From NCBI GenBank assembly GCA_964016885.1, contig OZ024762.1, positions 28,954,001 through 29,018,000 of the forward strand: 64,000 bases of DNA, given 5' to 3'. This document shows positions 1-61,584 of the stretch, one piece after another. Numbering within the stretch: position 1 is the stretch's first letter; each line of letters begins with the position of its first letter. The position numbers were made by a program, and so were the translations under genes. Source of the DNA: Eledone cirrhosa. Lineage: Eukaryota. The notes beneath the pieces were generated by a model that had not been told where the DNA came from, did not search any database, and saw only the letters and a program-made list of their open reading frames with translations.

Positions 1-348
1 GAAGGATCAGAATGGAGAGAGAGGTGCTCTACCCCAGCAAGTTTTATGAAAGGTGGGTGAAAGTAGGGAGAATGGCCAGAGTGAATGGGTCTTCTCTCTA
101 TATCAGCCTGTAGGTGAAAGAAGAGGAAAAAGAGGAGACGAGGGAAGCACCTACTCTTTGTGCTCCTGAGGAGAAGGGTTGCACATTTTTTCCGGGGTAT
201 GTGCGACCCATGTTGATGCCCCCTCCCTATTGAGGACTTCGTTTGTTGTTGTTATTTCATTGTTATATTTTTGTACTCGTTAATTATATGTAAACTTCCC
301 CCCTTGTATCTGTCCCTACCTTTTGTGCCCTAGTGGCAAATAAAGAAA
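1..348 (+). mobile_element. 3' end (ORF2 C-terminus and 3'UTR) of an upstream Tx1-clade LINE copy
   Basis: 1..348 matches 5780..6127 (offset 5779) with about 4 substitutions; ORF2 stop TAG at 111-113; ends in AATAAAGAAA. Confidence 0.93.
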
Positions 349-350
349 CC

Positions 351-487
351 ACTCTATATATACTATTGTATTTTCACAGTAAAGGCTTTACCTCACATAA
401 TATCTCACATAACATTTACATTACTCTATATATACTATTGTATTTTCACAGTAAAGGCTTTACCTCACATAATATCTCACATAACAT
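351..487. repeat. ~1.9 copies of a 72-bp unit between the two LINEs (internal repeat of a TTAA MITE)
   Basis: ACTCTATATATACTATTGTATTTTCACAG... starts at 351 and 423; same unit at 6130 and 6202; reverse complement resembles the 73-bp unit at 8880-9965. Confidence 0.9.
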
Positions 488-695
488 CTCGTATACGAGA
501 GACGTGTGTTGACGTGTGTGAACAAGCTCGGCTACCGAGTTGGATTTACTTACTCAAAAATGAGTTTTGATTAATTTTTTATACTGTAATATACGTTAAC
601 CCCTTGCCTTGGTCGTCAAACTTTGAGTTTATTTATTTTCGCCCCTTTTTGGGGCGAATTTTCCAGTTAAAAATTATTACGGCAAACTAATAGAA

Positions 696-2438
696 ATGGA
701 TGGAATTTTCACATCTCATCCTAACGAGAAAGCCACGGCCCCTAAGAAAGGTGATACAGAGAAGCTAGAAGCACAAGACTCTAAGTCTTTCCTCCTCACT
801 TCTGCAAAAGAAACATGGAACACGGAATTAAAAGAAAAAATTGTAAAGATGGGTGAAAACCCAGAAAGTCACATAAACGCAGACAAAAACAACAATGACA
901 ATAACAGCAATAGTCACAACACCAACCAAGGAAAAAATAACGATAACACCAAACAAAGCGAACCCACTACTGGTGCCTCCTTTGCACAGGCGGTCCGGAA
1001 AACATAGACCTGCAAGCAACTGGACATTACAACTCTGAGAGAAAAGATGAAGGAAGCGAAACAGTATGTAACTTTCAAAGAAGGAGGAGACTTCACAATC
1101 ACCTCCCCACAAGAAATCAAAAGAGACACGACGCTAAGAACGATATCCTTCAGAACAATTTCCAACATAACAAGGAAACCAACTCAATTATCCCAAAAAG
1201 AGATTGAGCTGGTCCTAAAAAATGTGTGGAGTGATATAGCGTTCATACAAAAAGGGCCACTCTATGGGAATATAACGGTCCTAATGAAGGATCAATTGAC
1301 GGCCAGGAAATACTCTGTGGCGCCAATTGTTTCCAAGCTACATACATTTTTCCCCACATATTTAGGGAAAAGAACGCAGAAGATAAGGGTCTCCGGAATC
1401 CGGCCAAATGCATGCATTTCCTGGGTACTAACAGGATTTTTAGAAGACGAGGACGGAATCCTTTCAGTAGGAGAAGTCACCACAGACGTTTTTGGCGGTT
1501 TGAGCGTGGAGGTTCTGGGCCAAATGAGACCAGAACGAATAGCTAGAATACCACAGAGGGTGTCCCTCGATGGAGAAACATTTATATATATTTCAGCCGA
1601 GGGTAGGAGGCCCATATGTTACTACTGTTCAAGCAGGGGTCATCTAAGGGCTGCTTGTCCTCAATTGACAAAAAAAAAGGCTCTTTTGCCTACACCCCAC
1701 ACACCACCACCGCCACCACCACCACCACCACCTCCACCACCACCACCACCACAACAACAACAAAAACAACACGGAAAAATAACACAAGACACGGCCCCAC
1801 CCAAAACAACTCCCAAAACACACACAAATACAACAAAACCCCAAAATACACCACTACCCGACAGCACGGACGAGGACCCAGCGGAAATGGCACCTAGTGA
1901 CGAAGAGGGGGAACCCTTCCAGCCTGTAAAAAGGAAAAAAAGAAAGCACCACTCGAACATAAACGAAACAAACACACAACCACCAACAAAAACAAAACAA
2001 ACAGAACAAACAAAATCCGCCCCGACCCAAAACATAACACATACAACAAAACGTAAACACACACAAGAACAACAAACAAACACAACACAAATAAAACAGT
2101 ATACATACATTAACACAAATAACAAAGAACTCGTAAAAACAATACACAAAGACCCTTTGGTGGAAACTGAAGGGCAATTCTTTGCAAGCGCGGCCAACAA
2201 ACCGCATTTAAAAATGATAAGACTCCCAATGGACACCTATGCTAAACTAAGAGAGAACTTTCCTGAGGACGTGGGGAAAACATGTACTCGACCCTATAAC
2301 CGCGTCCTCTTGAAACGTTTCCCCACCCACACCTCACCAAACACCCCCACTCCACCACAGAACAACACCCCACCAAACAACCCCTCCAATACGCCCATGG
2401 ATATTGTGCAACCTGCTCCTCAGGAGCCGAACAGGTAG
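696..2438 (+). pseudogene. LINE ORF1 (gag-like, zinc knuckle) with one in-frame stop
   Basis: ORFs 696..1007 and 1047..2438 are in the same frame, split by TAG at 1005-1007; SFAQAV N-terminal motif; CYYCSSRGHLRAAC = CX2CX4HX4C; Pro/Thr/Lys-rich tail. Confidence 0.85.
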
Positions 2439-2459
2439 GTCCTTCCTCTTTTAACCAAC

Positions 2460-5400
2460 ATGGCTGATATAAGAGTTGGGTGTCTGAATGTACGTGGCCT
2501 GGGACTGTCTTGGAAACAAGGCAAATTTTTAAAAGATCTGGTCGCATAGAATGGATGTAATGGCTATTTGCGAGTCCAGGATCAGCAGCGAGCACCAACT
2601 GGCGCCCCTCTTCGACGACTTTGAGATCTTCGCATCTCTCTGTCAACTGGGGGGTGGGGGTGGAGTTGTCGTTCTGCTGCGAAAACACCTGGGCCTCGCC
2701 ATACAGAAGGTGCACCTGGACCCGGAGGGTCGACTGGTGGTTTTAGACGTCGGCAGTAGTGAAAGTGGAGCCCTTAGACTAATAGCTGTGTACGCCCCTT
2801 TTTGGGCAGCGCGGCCGGAATACTTCCAACGTCTGGAAACTTTTCTGGGAACGTCCCGCTCCTTGCTTTTAGTGGGGGACTGGAATGGTATCCTGGATGC
2901 ACGTTGGGACTATGTAGGGGCATGTGCCAATAGAGGGGGGTGTAAAAGCCTCAAAAGGTTAATCGGCCGATTTGACCTGGCCGATAGATATCGACTAGAT
3001 TTTCCGACTGTACCACTATGGACGTGGACCAATCGCAGTGGAACATCTAGGTCGTACCTAGATAGGGTCCTAGTTAGAGAGAACGATAGGGACACATTTA
3101 GCTGTCCAAAAATGTTCATGGTTGACTATTCGGATCACAAGTTAGTGACCTGCATAGCCAACCTTGATAGAACCCATAGACAGGGACCCGGTTACTGGAA
3201 GCTGAACTTGTCCTTACCGAGAAGCAAAGCTTACAGTAAACGGATTAGCACGTTAGTTAAGCAGAGTTTGACAGGGGCAATTGTCAACAACAGGTGGTGG
3301 AGCTCTCTTAAGAGAGCAATTAGAATAGAATCGATAGGTTTTAGTCAGGAATTAGCAAGGGATAGGAACAAGACGGAAAGAGAATTAGTAGATAGAGTAG
3401 AAGAGGCGATTAGGAGTGGCAATGTAGCCGGCGTGCTGGCATCAAGAATGGTCTTAGACCAGTTCTTTGAGGTGAAGCATGAAGGCTGCGTTGTCAGGAG
3501 TAAAATACGTGCTCTGGGTAATGAGTGAGCCAAAGCTGTGAGCTGGGCCCGAGTGACAGAGGCAAAAAGTGGGAACAAGTCCACGATTCGGTCTTTGAAG
3601 GACCAGGATGGGCGTGTGATCCTTGAACCTGGGCAGATGTGTGGGGCCTTTCAGCGGCACTTTGCACGACTGTTCGAGAGGGGCGGCGCGCCGGGTGAGA
3701 CTATGGATTTCAATCCATACCTCGACGGTCTGCCGCGCCTCTCGGACGCGGAGGCGTAGTCCTGCGAAAGGACGATTTCAGCTGCTGAGATAGGGGCGGC
3801 GCTGAGCCAATGCGGCAAACGCAAATCCCCGGGTCTCAATGGTCTACCATACGAGCTATATGTAGCGATGCCGGACTTGTTCTCCGATATCCTCGAAGCG
3901 GTCTACTGCAACTGGCAGCAGAACGGGAGAATTCCCAGTTCTGTGACCAAGGGCGTAGTTACGCTGGTGAGGAAGGATGAGAACAAGGGGGATGACATAA
4001 GTAACTTCAGGCCCATAACTCTGCTAAATACAGAGTTAAAGATTTTGGCCAAGGTGTTAGCGAAGAGGTTGGCGCTTGTCGTTGGAAACCTGGTGGGAGA
4101 AGCGCAGACATGCGCAATCCCGTCCAGGTCCATTCACGACAATCTCCACCTTATGCGATACATCATAGAGAGGGTAGGGAATGAACCCGGCTTTGGTGGG
4201 GCCCTGATCAACTTGGATCAATCTAAAGCTTTCGATAGGGTTGACCATCGTTACCTGGATGCAGTGCTCGCGGCGGCAGGCTTCGGACCCGTTTTCAGGG
4301 GTTGGATTGCTGCGATGCACAGCAGCAACGTCTGTTCAAGGGTCAAGGTGAACGGCCACCTCTCGGAGCCGTTCCAAATCATGCAATCCATCCAACAGGG
4401 ATGCCCTCTCTCCTCCCTACTGTATGTGCTGGCTCTTGAGCCACTACTGCGGAAGTTGGAGCGGTTGCAGGGCATCCCTTTGGAACCGGGATTGCAGAAA
4501 GCGGCGTCGGCCTACGCCGATGTGACAGTAATGATGTCGAAAACCTCGCAAATCGGTGAGATCGGCACCTTACTGGAGGAATATGAAAGGTTTACAGGAG
4601 CCAAGCTGAACCGGGACAAGTCCGTCGGTTTGCAACTCGGAACATGGAGAGGCAAACCGATGCCCTCCAACGACGTCGTCGGACGCTGGACGGAGGGCCC
4701 GGTGGAGCTGCTTGGGGTCTGGTTCGGACCAGACCTCCAGGTGGAGAAAAACTGGAACGAGGTAACGGCCAGGGTGTTTGCACTCACCCAGAAGTGGGCC
4801 CAGTGCAAACTATCCCTGAAAGGTCGAGCGGAGGTGGCGAATACTTATATAGCATCCGTCATCTACTACCGCTTGACCGTCGTGCCTTGCCCAGTGAAAA
4901 GACTCGCCAAAATGGAGTGCGCGCTGTTCCAATTTCTTTGGAACAAGCGGACCCCTTTGGTGAGGAGATCCATCTGCTGTCAACACCCTTCGAAAGGAGG
5001 GCTGGGGATATCATGGCTAAAGATGCGTAAACACGCATTAAGGCTACGGCACCTCCAGGTATTCCTCACCGGTCAACCGGTGTGGGCCCCGTTTGTGAGG
5101 CGAGCCTTTCCCAGACTCGTCTCGCTCACCGAGCTGCAATCCTGGGTCAAGCAAAGACCGAGAAAAGTGGGCGACTGGCACATTGAATGTGCCCAGGCGC
5201 TCACGGCCCTCTGGAAAGCGGACCCGGCAATCAGTGGAGACTCCACCTCGACATTCTATAGAGGGTTGGTACGCAGCAGGTGCGATGATGCTCTCGGAGA
5301 AGCTCTAGGCATGGAGGAAGATGAACTGGCCAGTCTGTTCGGTAGGACGTTTGGCCCTGGACCGATGGACAACTTCCAAAAGTCCCTGGCTTGGCAGTGC

Positions 5401-5892
5401 TACCGAGGGGCTCTACCCGTTCGAGACAAGCTCCACAGGCATGGGAGCCTGGGTAGAGATCCTTTGAATAAGATCTGTCCGAGATGCGTGCATGATGACG
5501 AAACCGTTGTGCACGCATTCGTACACTGCCCAGGCATTGCTGACCTGTGGGGCTATGTGGAACGACTACTGTCGAAGGTGGGACCAATCCGGTTGACCAC
5601 CGAGTCCATTGTCGCGATCAAACCGCCTCCCCCTTTCAAAAACGAAGGAGAGGCGGTTTTTCTCTGTGATATAGCCATGGCTAAAGAAGTTGTATGGTGG
5701 ACGAGGCTGAAAGGGCTGAGGTCAGACACCTTTCTCTCCGGCCAACAACTGGTCCCCTTTTTCAAATACCATTTTAAAAGAAGGATCAGAATGGAGAGAG
5801 AGGTGCTCTACCCCAGCAAGTTTTATGAAAGGTGGGTGAAAGTAGGGAGAATGGCCAGAGTGAATGGGTCTTCTCTCTATATCAGCCTGTAG
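2460..5892 (+). pseudogene. LINE ORF2 (AP endonuclease, reverse transcriptase, zinc-binding domain), disrupted
   Basis: MADIRVGCLNVRGL start at 2460, frameshift near 2550; APE motifs VYAP, GDWN, SYLDRV, SDH; in-frame stops at 3526-3528 and 3757-3759; KSPGLNGLPYELY, FRPITLLN, LDQSKAFDRV, QGCPLS; YADV in place of YADD; CPRC...H...HC. Confidence 0.92.
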
Positions 5893-6129
5893 GTGAAAGA
5901 AGAGGAAAAAGAGGAGACGAGGGAAGCACCTACTCTTTGTGCTCCTGAGGAGAAGGGTTGCACATTTTTTCCAGGGTGTGTGCGACCCATGTTAATGCCC
6001 CCTCCCTATTGAGGACTTCGTTTGTTGTTGTTATTTCATTGTTATATTTTTGTACTTGTTAATTATATGTAAACTTCCCCCCTTGTATCTGTCCCTACCT
6101 TTTGTGCCCTAGTGGCAAATAAAGAAACC

Positions 6130-6636
6130 ACTCTATATATACTATTGTATTTTCACAGTAAAGGCTTTACCTCACATAATATCTCACATAACATTTACAT
6201 TACTCTATATATACTATTGTATTTTCACAGTAAAGGCTTTACCTCATAATTATATCACATAAGGGTTTTTTATATAGGCACAGGTCAGCAATTTTGGGGT
6301 AGGGGAACGTCGATTAAATCGACCCCAGTGAGTGACTGGTACTTTATTTTATCAACCCCATAAGGATGAAAGGCAAAGTTAACCTCGGCGGGATTGAACT
6401 AAAATCATAAAGGGCCGTAACTCTATGCGGCAAAGCCTGGCGTCCGACCCTCTACCGATACTGCCAATCCACCGCCCTCATAATTATCTCACATAATATC
6501 GAATCTATGAGATTTTGATGTTATTTATTTTGAGAACAATACCTTAATATAAGTATGAGTGTCCAGTTACAGCCAGTTTGAATAGAAAGAGTTGAGAAAA
6601 TGCTGGCCGAATACAACCGGTTTAAATGCTAAAGGG
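6130..6636 (-). mobile_element. Remainder of the host TTAA (piggyBac-like) MITE that carries the LINEs
   Basis: Two 72-bp units, then (after a SINE) sequence collinear with 60810-61021, ending TAAATGCTAAAGGG followed by TTAA (6637-6640). Confidence 0.75.
6263..6475 (-). mobile_element. tRNA-headed SINE (family A) with ~21-bp target-site duplication
   Basis: Reverse complement of GGCGGTGGATTGGCAGTATCGG...GCCTTTCATCCTTA...GATAAAATAAAGTACCAG; flanked by CCTCATAATTAT(A/C)TCACATAA on both sides. Confidence 0.8.
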
Positions 6637-6871
6637 TTAATTCTAAATTTGGCACAATTTTTTATGATGAATTTTTTACGAGTAAGAGGCCTCATAACAT
6701 AACTAGCACAGGGCTTCATGTGCCCTAAATCTTGCACTGGTCCAAGCCCATGTTTGCCAATCACTTTTTGACTAAACTTTACCCAAACCTCCCTCCTCCT
6801 CACCACCATCACCACCACCACCACCACCAAATACCATTGCTATTTGTTTTTTGTTTTAACTTTCTTACCAG

Positions 6872-7072
6872 GTTTTTCTGCAGCACAAAATAAATTCTCA
6901 ATAATAGTGTTGGTATCAAATGACAAAAAACACAGAATATGTAAGAAGATTTCCAATCTAGAGAAGACAAAAGTTATTGATGTGCAATGTTCTAGTCCTG
7001 TTAAGGGCAACAAAATCACAATAATTCTGCTGTCAGGACCTAGCCTTAGCATGTGTGAAGTGGAGGTCTTTC
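6872..7072 (+). CDS. Exon: C-terminal part of an F-type lectin / galactose-binding-like domain
   Basis: Polypyrimidine tract + ACCAG acceptor (alternative CTGCAG gives start 6884); encodes ...ICKKISNLEKTKVIDVQCSSPVKGNKITIILLSGPSLSMCEVEVF; donor C|GTAAGT, phase 1. L/MCEVEVF is the typical ending of this fold. Confidence 0.8.
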
Positions 7073-7940: not shown

Positions 7941-8745
7941 GAAAAATATATTGTATTATATAGCTGAAAATGAGTACCAGTAATAGCTGGAGGTTTAACA
8001 CTGTGATGGACTGGTGTCCTGTCCAGCGAGGTTGTTGTTGTTACAGCTCACACATATGCAGGTTTAGCTGGCCTCCTCCAAGGTATATCTCGTTGGAGGT
8101 GTCTAGGGTAATTTAATGATAGGGACCCCAGTCCTATCATTTCATTTCTACAGCTGATTAAACTGGAGCAATGTGAAATAAAGTGTCTTGCTCAAGGAAA
8201 CAACACATCACCTGGTCCGAGAATTGAACTCACAACCTTTCGATTGCAAGCCAATGCTCTAACCACTAAGCCATGTGCCTTCACAGCAAGGTGTCTTGTA
8301 CTTCAAGTTGCTTCATGCCATGAAACCGAGATAAGCATTGGCCTAACAAGCCTTCTGGTTTAAGACAGACTTTTTTAGACAGTGTGATGCTTTTCCAATG
8401 CCATGCCAAAAAAAAAAAAAAATGAATAAGATTTTACTTGTTGATTATAACCAGTTTGAATTTTTGTGCATTTTCATCCATTTTCATCTATGTTCTTGCA
8501 GGAGACAATTCTAAATGAAAAAGAAATGAACCGTAAACTTAAAGTGGAATAAGGGCAGTTTCAGGTGGTTTGGAATGTAACTTAACAAAGGTTCTTACAT
8601 GAAATTAGATGGAAGATTTTTAGATAATATAAAGGCTTTGGAATAAACAATTTTGTAGCATAGAACCTGGGGCAGTTCAGGTGGTTTGGAATATAACTTA
8701 ACAAAGGTTCTTAAATGAAATTATAATGGAATGTAAACAGTTTAA

Positions 8746-9972
8746 CCCTTTAGCATTTAAACTGGCCATATCCGGCCAGAATTCTCTAACCTCTGTTCAA
8801 ATCAGCTGCAACTGGCCACTCATACTGATGTTAAGGTTTTCTTCTCAAAATAAATAATATTAAAATCTTGTAGATTCAATATTATGTGAGATAATTATGT
8901 GAGGTAAAGCATTTACCATGAAAATACAATAGTAAATACAGGGTAATGTAAATGTTATGTGAGATAATTATGTGAGGTAAAGCCTTTACCATGAAAATAC
9001 AATAGTAAATACAGAGTAATGTAAATGTTATGTGAGATAATTATGTGAGGTAAAGCCTTTACCATGAAAATACAATAGTAAATACAGAGTAATGTAAATG
9101 TTATGTGAGATAATTATGTGAGGTAAAGCCTTTACCATGAAAATACAATAGTAAATACAGAGTAATGTAAATGTTATGTGAGATAATTATGTGAGGTAAA
9201 GCCTTTACCATGAAAATACAATAGTAAATACAGGGTAATGTAAATAATTATGTGAGGTAAAGCCTTTACCATGAAAATACAATAGTAAATACAGAGTAAT
9301 GTAAATGCTATGTGAGATAATTGTGTGAGGTAAAGCCTTTACCATGAAAATACAATAGTAAATACAGAGTAATGTAAATGCTATGTGAGATAATTATGTG
9401 AGGTAAAGCCTTTACCATGAAAATACAATAGTAAATACAGGGTAATGTAAATGTTATGTGAGATAATTATGTGAGGTAAAGCCTTTACCATGAAAATACA
9501 ATAGTAAATACAGGGTAATGTAAATGTTATGTGAGATAATTATGTGAGGTAAAGCCTTTACCATGAAAATACAATAGTAAATACAGGGTAATGTAAATGT
9601 TATGTGAGATAATTATGTGAGGTAAAGCCTTTACCATGAAAATACAATAGTAAATACAGGGTAATGTAAATGTTATGTGAGATAATTATGTGAGGTAAAG
9701 CCTTTACCATGAAAATACAATAGTAAATACAGAGTAATGTAAATGCTATGTGAGATAATTATGTGAGGTAAAGCCTTTACCATGAAAATACAATAGTAAA
9801 TACAGGGTAATGTAAATGTTATGTGAGATAATTATGTGAGGTAAAGCCTTTACCATGAAAATACAATAGTAAATACAGGGTAATGTAAATGTTATGTGAG
9901 ATAATTATGTGAGGTAAAGCCTTTACCATGAAAATACAATAGTAAATACAGGGTAATGTAAATGCTAAAGGG
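8746..9972 (+). mobile_element. TTAA (piggyBac-like) MITE with expanded internal tandem repeat
   Basis: TTAA|CCCTTTAGCATTTA ... TAAATGCTAAAGGG|TTAA: perfect 14-bp terminal inverted repeats and TTAA duplication. Confidence 0.85.
8880..9965. repeat. 73-bp minisatellite, ~15 copies, inside the MITE
   Basis: GTAATGTAAATGTTATGTGAGATAATTATGTGAGGTAAAGCCTTTACCATGAAAATACAATAGTAAATACAG(A/G) recurs at 8943, 9016 and onward. Confidence 0.95.
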
Positions 9973-10009
9973 TTAAAATAAACAGCATTGTCAAAGTGCA
10001 GATTGAAAT

Positions 10010-60580: not shown

Positions 60581-60809
60581 GTGCTCTTTTGTAGTTCTAT
60601 TTCTTTAGAAAATCTACCAGACAAATGGATGAATGTCCTCTTCAGTCATGATGAAATGTATCCAGTAACATCTGAGAGGTCAGTAGCTCCGATTAAGTTC
60701 TGAGTCGGTCTCTGTTGACACATCCCACTCTTGGTTACAGGGGAAGTGAATGTTAAATGTTCATCATGAGGAAGATGTGAGTAGCAGGGGCAGTAGAGTT
60801 ACAGATTAA

Positions 60810-61021
60810 CCCTTTAGCATTTACACTACTTCATATACACTATTATATTTTCACAGTAAAGGCTTTATCTCATATAATTATCTCACATAATATCAAATCT
60901 ATGAGATTTTGATATTATCTATTTTGAGAACAATACCTTAACATAAGTATGAGCAGCCAGTTATGGCTGGTTTGAACAGAAAGAAGTGAGAGAATTGTGG
61001 CCGGTTTAAATTCTAAAGGTT
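60810..61021 (-). mobile_element. Short TTAA MITE copy, reverse orientation, no LINE inside
   Basis: TTAA|CCCTTTAGCATTTACAC... TAAATTCTAAAGGTT|TTAA; collinear with 6200-6636 minus the SINE. Confidence 0.8.
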
Positions 61022-61584
61022 TTAATGGGTTGTGATTTTGAGTTCTTTTTTAAAACGGTATTCAAATCCCACCAAAATCAACTTTTTCTGTCATACTTTT
61101 GGAGTAGATAGAATAATATAGCAGTGAAATACCATGCAATGGACTAGCATCCTGTCCAGGTGTGGGGAATACAGTGGACTCTGCTCAGTGTGATACCTAC
61201 CGACAGTTAGAAGGACTGGGCTGTTGAATATACAAAAACAAAAAATGTCTAAAGTGTGTCTCGAGTGCTGAGGGTCATCAGGCCAGTGCTATCTATGGCA
61301 TGAAGTGACTTAAAATACAAAACTTCCCCTGGACAGGGCACCAGTCCATCCCAAGGTTAAATCACCAGCTATTACTGGCACTGATCTCCAAGCTTCCTGA
61401 AATTCGCCAACACTACACCTGATATCCCTCCTCCATACACACGTACATATGTTTATCATGACTCATACACTGTTCATTTTCCTGACATTTGTTCATTATT
61501 CTATGCGCTTTACATGCACCTTTGATGAGTTATAGTGCACCTGAGCACTGTACACAATAATTTCACTATTATTATTATTATACT

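Follow-up and report, generated by a model that had tools for sequence, protein, structure and literature searches.

A young, probably Tx1-clade LINE family at one fixed base of a piggyBac-like MITE repeat, with 5' ends probably completed by RNA-borne target sequence

In Xenopus, the LINE Tx1L occupies a tandem repeat internal to the element Tx1D, with a target duplication of about 23 bp. Published work describes Tx1L as a sequence-specific APE-type LINE and Tx1D as a non-autonomous piggyBac element (PMC4494074, PMC1950540, PMC6719617), and places other transposon-targeting Tx1 families in crocodilians. According to PMC4494074, the crocodilian Tx1-Mar, Tx1-9_AMi and SINEU-3 favour a DNA transposon (Mariner or Harbinger) as their target, insert sequentially in tandem and have sister groups on microsatellites, and transcription from the flanking transposon was raised as a possibility. 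The same source lists the Tx1 families Kibi and Koshi, flanked by (TC)n and (TTC)n, respectively. For R2 elements, whose 5' junctions are uniform, the explanation put forward is that cDNA derived from the target pairs with the target upstream; in springtail R2, the junctions consistently lack 7 bp (PMC3774820).

The locus described here contains a comparable arrangement. The window, that is, the whole stretch of 64,000 nucleotides that was analysed, holds two head-to-tail LINEs (LINE1 and LINE2) within the tandem repeat of a MITE, together with LINE-free copies of the same host element:

1..350, + strand: LINE1 3' end, comprising the ORF2 C-terminus and a 3' UTR closing in AAATAAAGAAA-CC
351..422, + strand: one whole 72-bp MITE repeat unit, its first base abutting the LINE1 3' end
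423..487, + strand: 65-bp unit "-1" preceding LINE2, of which at least the last 25 bases are, family-wide, a probable element-borne target copy
488..6129, + strand: LINE2, full length at 5,642 bp, disabled
696..2438, + strand: LINE2 ORF1, about 580 aa, with one CCHC zinc knuckle and an in-frame stop at 1005-1007
2460..5892, + strand: LINE2 ORF2, with APE endonuclease, RT and C-terminal zinc finger
6130..6262, + strand: two repeat units downstream of LINE2, the 3' junction being the first base of the unit
6263..6478, strand unassigned: unrelated SINE-like short dispersed repeat inserted in the last unit and apparently duplicating about 20 bp
6479..6640, + strand: right arm of the host MITE, with TIR at 6623-6636 and TTAA at 6637-6640
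about 8742..9976, - strand: LINE-free host MITE of 15 units, its ends matching an autonomous piggyBac
near 13.64-13.86 kb and 19.99-20.21 kb, - strand: short LINE-free host MITE copies
60806..61026, + strand: LINE-free host MITE with one unit

Most of what a sequence-only reading had reported about these junctions was reproduced. Both LINEs end in AAATAAAGAAA-CC-ACTCTATATATAC, with CC at 349-350 and 6128-6129 and the unit beginning at 351 and 6130, so that the 3' ends do join the repeat at the identical base. The estimate of about four substitutions between them proved to be exactly four when window positions 1-348 were set against 5780-6127 (at 194, 199, 215 and 278). On re-reading, the LINE2 5' junction again falls directly after ...CACATAACAT, ending at 487, and the reported identity of 423-487 with 6130-6194 holds. 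The four LINE-free MITE copies were also found in four places; since those at 13.6 and 20.0 kb have identical flanks, these two are counted as one insertion. Reading upstream of the window, as had been suggested, revealed the whole of LINE1 (5,631 bp, starting at G000:C23:28948720), preceded by 14 repeat units, and the left end of the MITE 3.4 kb upstream. ORF1 of LINE1 is open and its ORF2 has one stop, while ORF2 of LINE2 shifts frame early on, contains two stops and has a disrupted YADD motif.

The genome search bears out the suggestion that a site-specific LINE has inserted into tandem repeats of a TTAA-flanked MITE. Of 413 exact LINE 3' ends genome-wide, 333 join the 72-bp unit at one and the same base, and 295 of 305 5' ends come directly after CACATAACAT. 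Exact empty target sites number about 29,656 in 3.0 Gb, or roughly one per 100,000 bases, and the proportion of 3' ends in register is therefore far above chance. With a query that stopped 330 bp short of the junction, a 3' end could be recognised at 28 of 30 loci, and every one of these 28 joins the start of the unit. Among 60 further loci, 24 belonged to the LINE family and join the unit without exception; relatives or fragments made up the remaining 36, and TATC follows 35 of them. Where sampled, the exceptions among 3' ends were nearly all related families closing in (TATC)n. In PMC4494074, a LINE is regarded as target-specific when more than 20% of its flanks are of one type, and the present family falls within that class. 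About 300 young LINE copies thus occupy one exact base of the MITE tandem repeat.

The host MITE has TTAA flanks and TIRs beginning CCC. The same genome contains an intact piggyBac of 2,575 bp with a PF13843 transposase in a 561-aa open frame, and the left end of the MITE is identical to it at 21 of 22 bases and the right end at 16 of 16. Because its ends match this intact 2.6-kb element, the host is classified, on sequence grounds, as a non-autonomous piggyBac, in agreement with the proposed parallel to Tx1D.

The LINE is an L1-group APE-type non-LTR retrotransposon, with an N-terminal APE domain, an RT, a C-terminal zinc finger, a separate ORF1 and no LTRs. ORF2, 1,145 aa long in intact copies, contains the Pfam domains PF03372, PF00078 and PF13966; its best PDB match is human L1 ORF2p (E 2e-53), with R2 behind it at 2e-22. 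An RNA-binding domain and a CCHC knuckle are characteristic of Tx1-clade ORF1 proteins. The single CCHC knuckle of ORF1 here (E 0.007) falls short of the Pfam cut-off, and its Atlas neighbours are CCHC, RRM or ZCCHC3-like, features not unique to Tx1. No named Tx1 protein occurred among 89 homologues, 10 clusters and the Atlas rows; the family likely belongs to the Tx1 clade, a placement made from domain layout rather than from a tree. Copies are about 1% diverged, some being only 0-5 substitutions from each other, and both ORFs are open in 11 of 76 full-length copies. Insertion is mostly full length (23 of 24 copies); the sister family is likewise mostly full length, which makes any contrast in truncation between them weak. 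The literature searched yielded no account of this LINE family, nor of any LINE targeting a MITE in molluscs, cephalopods included, although Repbase, subscription papers and supplements could already contain the family.

A single chance insertion might have been spread passively, whether the composite moved as a piggyBac or was copied in tandem or segmental duplications. Such duplication does occur: some clusters contain true tandem duplicates (copies 3-5 of cluster C1; copies 1, 3 and 4 of C10), and the window locus itself has segmental duplicates, L133 and L146. However, across 38 loci (703 pairs), the host arms differ by a median of 14.6% and the LINEs by 1.5%, with no correlation between the two (rho 0.05), and only one of the 703 pairs, a segmental duplicate, has an arm in common. 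Because the arms are about 15% apart and the LINEs 1.5%, the copies must have inserted independently, and passive spread, already refuted for the family, deserves almost no credence. A composite transposon in which LINE and MITE move as one was rejected on the same figures. The two LINEs in the window are 98.1% identical, but LINE1 carries 48 variants and LINE2 60, of which 13 are in common; they are not sisters in the tree and their lesions differ, which disposes of a simple tandem duplication of the window pair. The duplicate L133 was considered as an empty site for LINE1 and found uninformative: sequence is deleted at its 5' junction, and the duplicate itself may be collapsed or recombinant.

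For the 5' end, the choice had been framed as either a 65-bp target-site duplication or a 7-bp target deletion. Neither model fits: private variants are not common to units -1 and +1, truncated copies bear short duplications, and the constant 5' junction is apparently passed on as part of the element. A true 65-bp duplication would explain the identity of the two window segments, and six variants are indeed common to units -1 and +1 only. Variants exclusive to units -1 and -2 are commoner (11 cases), and of the 32 unit +1 variants in 22 young copies, just 7 recur in unit -1, five of the seven being array-fixed at one locus. This explanation is largely refuted and very improbable.

The upstream unit of full-length copies is chimeric: positions 1-40 follow the local array, whereas 41-65 have the standard sequence. 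Where a variant is common to both neighbouring units, unit -1 never keeps it at positions 41-65 (0 of 13 cases), whereas controls keep it in 19 of 36 (p=6e-4). Array-fixed variants are kept there in 0 of 9 cases (8 loci), against 89 of 100 in controls, and at positions 1-40 in 18 of 27. These tests cover 8-13 loci, and variants of one locus are not independent. Probable duplicates or mis-placed junctions were left out: L145 and L117 from the test of sharing among units -1, +1 and -2, additionally L120 from the both-neighbour and young-copy tests, and then L133 from the array-fixed test. In L229, unit -1 is without a deletion present in 18 of 18 other units, and in L165 a standard unit lies amid an array whose other units are all short (10 of 10). 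At the 3' junction, array-common variants at positions 1-20 are kept in 6 of 8 cases, leaving out L269, whose downstream array is inverted. Some units -1 nevertheless have variants at 41-65 (25 listed), including 12-bp deletions that unit +1 also has in L127 and L136; replacement is therefore not universal, or slippage recurs.

The chimeric unit suggests that the LINE RNA likely carries target sequence that anneals to finish the 5' junction. A uniform 5' junction and element-borne target sequence, the marks of R2-like homologous 5' joining, are both found here by genomic inference. No ribozyme was matched in Rfam for window positions 400-760 (four rows at E 1.4-7, far under threshold), and the fold of the 5' region has z = -2.1. 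Alternatively, the nuclease could cut the top strand 7 nt upstream and produce a real 7-bp deletion, the standard 25 bp then reflecting selection of matching targets rather than RNA-borne sequence. The near-constant junction, the mostly local positions 1-40 and the truncated copy L151, joined at full-length position 65, would all suit such a cut; RNA-borne annealing would have to explain L151 by an internal deletion or by template jumping. However, the other four of the five 5'-truncated junctions have duplications of 2, 6, 9 and 13 bp (L268, L272, L226 and L267), one of them in a single-unit MITE, and a lone standard unit would have to pre-exist where 18/18, 12/12 or 10/10 others are variant. 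A deletion of this kind is accordingly unlikely. Gene conversion between LINE copies could instead have homogenised the junction-proximal repeat after insertion. Local exchange or duplication among tandem copies and the four rare variants common to LINE1 and LINE2 speak for it, and it still weighs in part against RNA-borne annealing; but the effect is confined to one side, most local variants lying 17-18 bp from the 3' junction being retained, and very young copies (L229, L223) already show it. It is rather improbable as the general explanation.

With good confidence, then, the family is read as a young APE-RT LINE, likely of the Tx1 clade, at a fixed base of the piggyBac MITE repeat, the 5' ends of its full-length copies likely finished by upstream annealing of RNA-borne target sequence. 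Reverse transcription would be primed by an endonuclease nick in the bottom strand near TTTACATT/ACTC, with the top strand broken 2-13 nt further along. Transcription would start in the upstream MITE array, so that the repeat sequence carried on the RNA would measure from 25 to at least 65 nt. The cDNA end could then anneal to the upstream target, mostly one unit back, leaving a constant junction and an apparent loss of 7 bp. Because further sites are left after each insertion, tandem LINE trains grow by fresh insertions as well as by local duplication.

Close relatives of the family are flanked by (TATC)n, and a 145-aa tree, modestly supported and with an outgroup that is distant, places the family within the lineages that end in (TATC)n. 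The target-switch families are 69-88% identical in the ORF2 C-terminus. Between the piggyBac-MITE family and the (TATC)n family, about 28% of endonuclease residues differ as against 14% of RT residues, and the hairpin loop differs at just two residues. MITE targeting appears to derive from (TATC)n targeting, a shift that the TCTATATATAC motif in the unit may have aided. As the nearest relatives end in (TATC)n, a separate origin of piggyBac-MITE targeting is suggested, in a family with intact young copies. The fuller scenario is offered tentatively, the balance tipping slightly against it: a recent switch of an APE LINE from (TATC)n to a piggyBac MITE, independent of Xenopus Tx1L, with transcription from the host array, the repeat as 5' homology arm, and base-exact full-length 5.6-kb copies that rewrite the host repeat.

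If this is true, intact copies exist in one genome alongside close relatives on the old target and offer a natural comparison of a LINE before and after retargeting. The manner in which APE-type LINEs change target becomes testable, as does the way in which LINE 5' junctions are completed, with variant-marked arrays as a natural record of crossovers. A site-specific element with mostly full-length insertions is also relevant to RNA-templated gene insertion.

Among the known systems, Tx1L in Tx1D is likewise an APE-type site-specific LINE within a non-autonomous piggyBac family. The host sequence here differs from Tx1D, the animal is apparently an invertebrate, and the unit upstream of full-length copies is chimeric, where Tx1L has a plain duplication. 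Tx1-Mar, Tx1-9_AMi and SINEU-3 share the transposon target, the tandem insertions and the microsatellite sister groups; their host is old and their preference often partial, whereas the junction here is base-exact, the copies young and ORFs intact. Kibi and Koshi resemble the (TATC)n sister families in being microsatellite-flanked, but on other repeats, and the present family has apparently moved from a microsatellite to a complex 72-bp unit. R2 has comparably uniform 5' junctions, with target-derived sequence proposed to anneal upstream, which here is a genomic inference. R2 differs in its rDNA target, restriction-like nuclease and HDV-like ribozyme, in contrast to the APE nuclease and transposon target of a LINE without an Rfam ribozyme match.

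The sequence-only reading had placed two head-to-tail LINEs at one position of a repeat, and its coordinates proved correct when the window was read again. Both 3' junctions are identical, with AAATAAAGAAA-CC followed by the first base of the 72-bp unit at 351 and 6130. The 3' ends of the upstream LINE1 and the downstream LINE2 differ at 4 of 348 positions, matching the estimate of about four substitutions, and the visible 5' end of LINE2 stands directly after CACATAACAT, at 487, where it had been placed. The unit is indeed the internal repeat of a TTAA-flanked MITE; four LINE-free MITE copies lie in the window as counted, although two are duplicates of each other. Upstream of the window, which occupies G000:C23:28954001-29018000 of the 3.0-Gb assembly, the anticipated further LINE sequence and other MITE end were both located: LINE1 is full length (98.1% identity to LINE2) and preceded by 14 units, and the left MITE end lies 3.4 kb before it, with a separate insertion between. 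An AG/GT-bounded open frame at window 6871-7072, ending in LSMCEVEVF, is exon-like, and the composite may therefore be intronic; a Pfam search of this segment gave no match of note. Many other long minisatellite arrays (units of 24, 28, 31, 48, 54 and 65 bp) occupy window 24472-60582. Further MITE-borne arrays are likely among them, because the 48-bp unit contains TTAACCCTTTCATTACC, which resembles a piggyBac end.

The LINE is about 5.65 kb long. It encodes an ORF1 of about 580 aa with a single CCHC knuckle and an ORF2 of 1,145 aa with APE, RT and a C-terminal zinc finger, whose closest solved structure is human L1 ORF2p (E 2e-53). We take this domain layout to be compatible with the Tx1 label, and the element is probably a member of the Tx1 clade; no named Tx1 protein occurred among the homologues, clusters and Atlas rows searched. 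Across 99 copies, divergence from the majority base has a median of 0.85%, with one group near-identical, and both frames are open in 11 of the 76 full-length copies examined. In LINE2, ORF1 is interrupted by a stop, and ORF2 by a frameshift and two stops, its YADD motif also being broken; LINE1 shows a single stop in ORF2, different from those of LINE2. In one copy (L164) the two frames are joined into 1,740 aa. Large internal deletions that keep both ends occur in many copies (L101, L118, L125, L143, L162, L169, L170, L260, L279), several with short microhomology.

When the LINE ends were searched genome-wide, as the idea of a transposon-targeting LINE had called for, most were found in the same register of the unit. 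An exact 24-mer of the 3' end occurs 413 times and is followed by NN-ACTCTATAT in 333 cases, and an exact 20-mer of the 5' end is preceded by CACATAACAT at 295 of its 305 occurrences. Empty sites number 29,656. Another query stopped 330 bp short of the 3' junction; the 3' end was recognisable in 28 of its 30 loci and joined the unit start in all 28, the unit continuing for only 17 bp in one and being a short-unit variant in another. A further sample, enriched for exceptions, comprised 60 previously unexamined loci among the first 100 listed 3' ends. It held 24 members of the family, each of them joined to the unit; the 5' end is intact in 23. The remaining 36 loci are related elements or fragments with long matches about 80% identical, TATC following the 3' end in 35 and also standing at the 5' junction in 25. 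Given this identity and these flanks, the sampled exceptions belong to other families. The element is almost certainly a site-specific LINE of a piggyBac MITE. At three loci (L070, L116, L263) the unit is broken by other sequences directly after ACTCTATATATACTA, which suggests a second element with a preference for this repeat.

The host was identified through a transposase search of the genome, which found intact piggyBacs:

L284-L299 (e.g. L288:973-3547): intact 2,575-bp piggyBac, several copies with a 561-aa transposase frame

The ends of this family are common to the MITE (left 21/22 bases, right 16/16), and the host is therefore a non-autonomous piggyBac; the 2,575-bp family is its likely mobiliser. 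A second piggyBac family has the ends CCCTTTCGTTACCA.

The pair could also have arisen by local tandem duplication of a single insertion. However, LINE1 carries 48 variants and LINE2 60, only 13 being common to both, including 4 rare ones, and the tree of copies does not pair the two LINEs as sisters. Genuine tandem duplicates at other loci differ at only 2-10 sites, and trains of five and six copies consist of such duplicates plus unrelated copies. Across 38 loci with a visible right MITE arm, median divergence is 14.6% for the host arms vs 1.5% for the 3' 800 bp of the LINE, without correlation. An arm is shared in only 1 of 703 locus pairs, which stems from segmental duplication of the window locus. 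Independent insertion at different loci is thus shown, and an old duplication behind the window pair would be improbable. Segmental duplicates of LINE-MITE loci, the window locus among them, include L133 (C27), L146 (C16), L093 and L120; those of the window locus differ in unit number. Two further loci, L117 (461-1236) and L118, have in common an upstream segment composed of the first 148 bp of the LINE, about 560 bp of unassigned sequence and a standard 65-bp unit, although their downstream arrays are very different; this segment possibly moved within one longer transcript.

Of the two target-site outcomes first envisaged, a 65-bp duplication is rejected. Only 7 of 32 variants of the unit downstream of the LINE (+1) also occur in the unit upstream (-1) in 22 young copies, and sharing of unit -1 variants is confined to unit +1 in 6 cases and to unit -2 in 11. 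Instead, unit -1 of full-length copies is a chimera. At 100 loci, neighbour-shared variants are retained in it at positions 21-40 in 14/26 cases vs 29/48 in controls, and at positions 41-65 in 0/13 vs 19/36 (p = 6e-4). At 112 loci, array-fixed variants, meaning those carried by 75% or more of the other units, are retained in 18/27 cases at positions 1-40 and in 0/9 (from 8 loci) at 41-65, where control units retain 89/100. Individual loci show the same structure: in L223 five local variants persist at 17-28 and two, at 41 and 46, are gone, unit -1 of L229 lacks a deletion present in 18/18 other units, and L165 has a complete standard unit amid an array of short units. Counter-evidence is provided by 25 variants present at 41-65 of units -1 and by two 12-bp deletions common to units -1 and +1. 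By the 3' junction, array-common variants at positions 1-20 are retained in 6/8 cases (L269 set aside). Five truncated 5' ends were found. Four begin 2, 6, 9 and 13 bases into the unit (L268, in a single-unit MITE; L272; L226; and L267, with an inversion and filler), which represents a short duplication, and the fifth (L151) has its junction at unit position 65. A sixth truncated copy, L146, is interrupted by satellite and hence has no usable 5' junction. Older copies (median divergence 2.4%) have the target's TT as their 3' dinucleotide and younger ones (0.95%) have CC, which suggests that the dinucleotide was first target-derived and later inherited by the element.

In the proposed mechanism, a bottom-strand nick near TTTACATT/ACTC would prime reverse transcription, and the top strand would be broken a few bases downstream of it. 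The RNA would start within the upstream array, bearing 25 to at least 65 nt of repeat, and the completed cDNA would anneal to target sequence upstream, in most cases one unit back, and replace its end. This scheme would account for a 5' junction that is constant and seems to lack 7 bp, and perhaps for truncation being rare. RNA-borne 5' homology is, in our assessment, quite probable. The same joining scheme has been proposed for R2 elements whose RNA retains upstream 28S sequence (PMC3774820). An Rfam search for a ribozyme at the LINE 5' end matched no family. The 5' end carries a hairpin (window 479-509), a 12-bp palindrome in which target-derived bases pair with element bases; the 5' ends of the main sister, a related (TATC)n-flanked family, likewise combine both in TCTATC-TT-GATAGA. 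These hairpins may be a trace of a 5' end that arose by folding back.

Several LINE lineages ending in (TATC)n are 69-88% identical in the ORF2 C-terminus, and a tree built from 145 aa, with unnamed outgroups and copies >93% identical thinned to two, places the MITE family among them; the alignment is short and the support modest. A motif similar to TATC, TCTATATATAC, stands at the unit start. Compared with the main sister, the endonuclease is 72% identical, RT 86% and ORF1 about 35%, and two residues of the hairpin loop differ. Taken together, nesting, motif and identities indicate that MITE targeting is likely derived and recent, and descent from (TATC)n targeting is fairly probable. The (TATC)n-flanked families (L230-L261 and others, e.g. 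G000:C3:91961790-91968790) form a radiation, with head-to-tail nesting in many cases. The main sister measures about 5.7 kb and has 45 exact 5' junctions, and its sampled copies are mostly interior to large chromosomes; the MITE family clusters near ends.

The strategy of a LINE targeting a transposon is already known. Tx1 has been described within Tx1D of Xenopus (PMC4494074; PMC6719617; PMC1950540), which is likewise a non-autonomous piggyBac (PMC4494074), and crocodilian Tx1 families occur in Mariner, Harbinger and LTR elements (PMC4494074); PMC3747384 offers further background. The Octopus vulgaris annotation reports 13 recently active L1-Tx1 families, in the available text without target analysis (PMC13282606). 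No description of the present family was found in the literature searched, a scope outside which Repbase and supplements lay. What the Eledone system adds to these known cases is a likely separate origin of MITE targeting, a recent target switch and evidence that an APE-type LINE joins its 5' end by homology.
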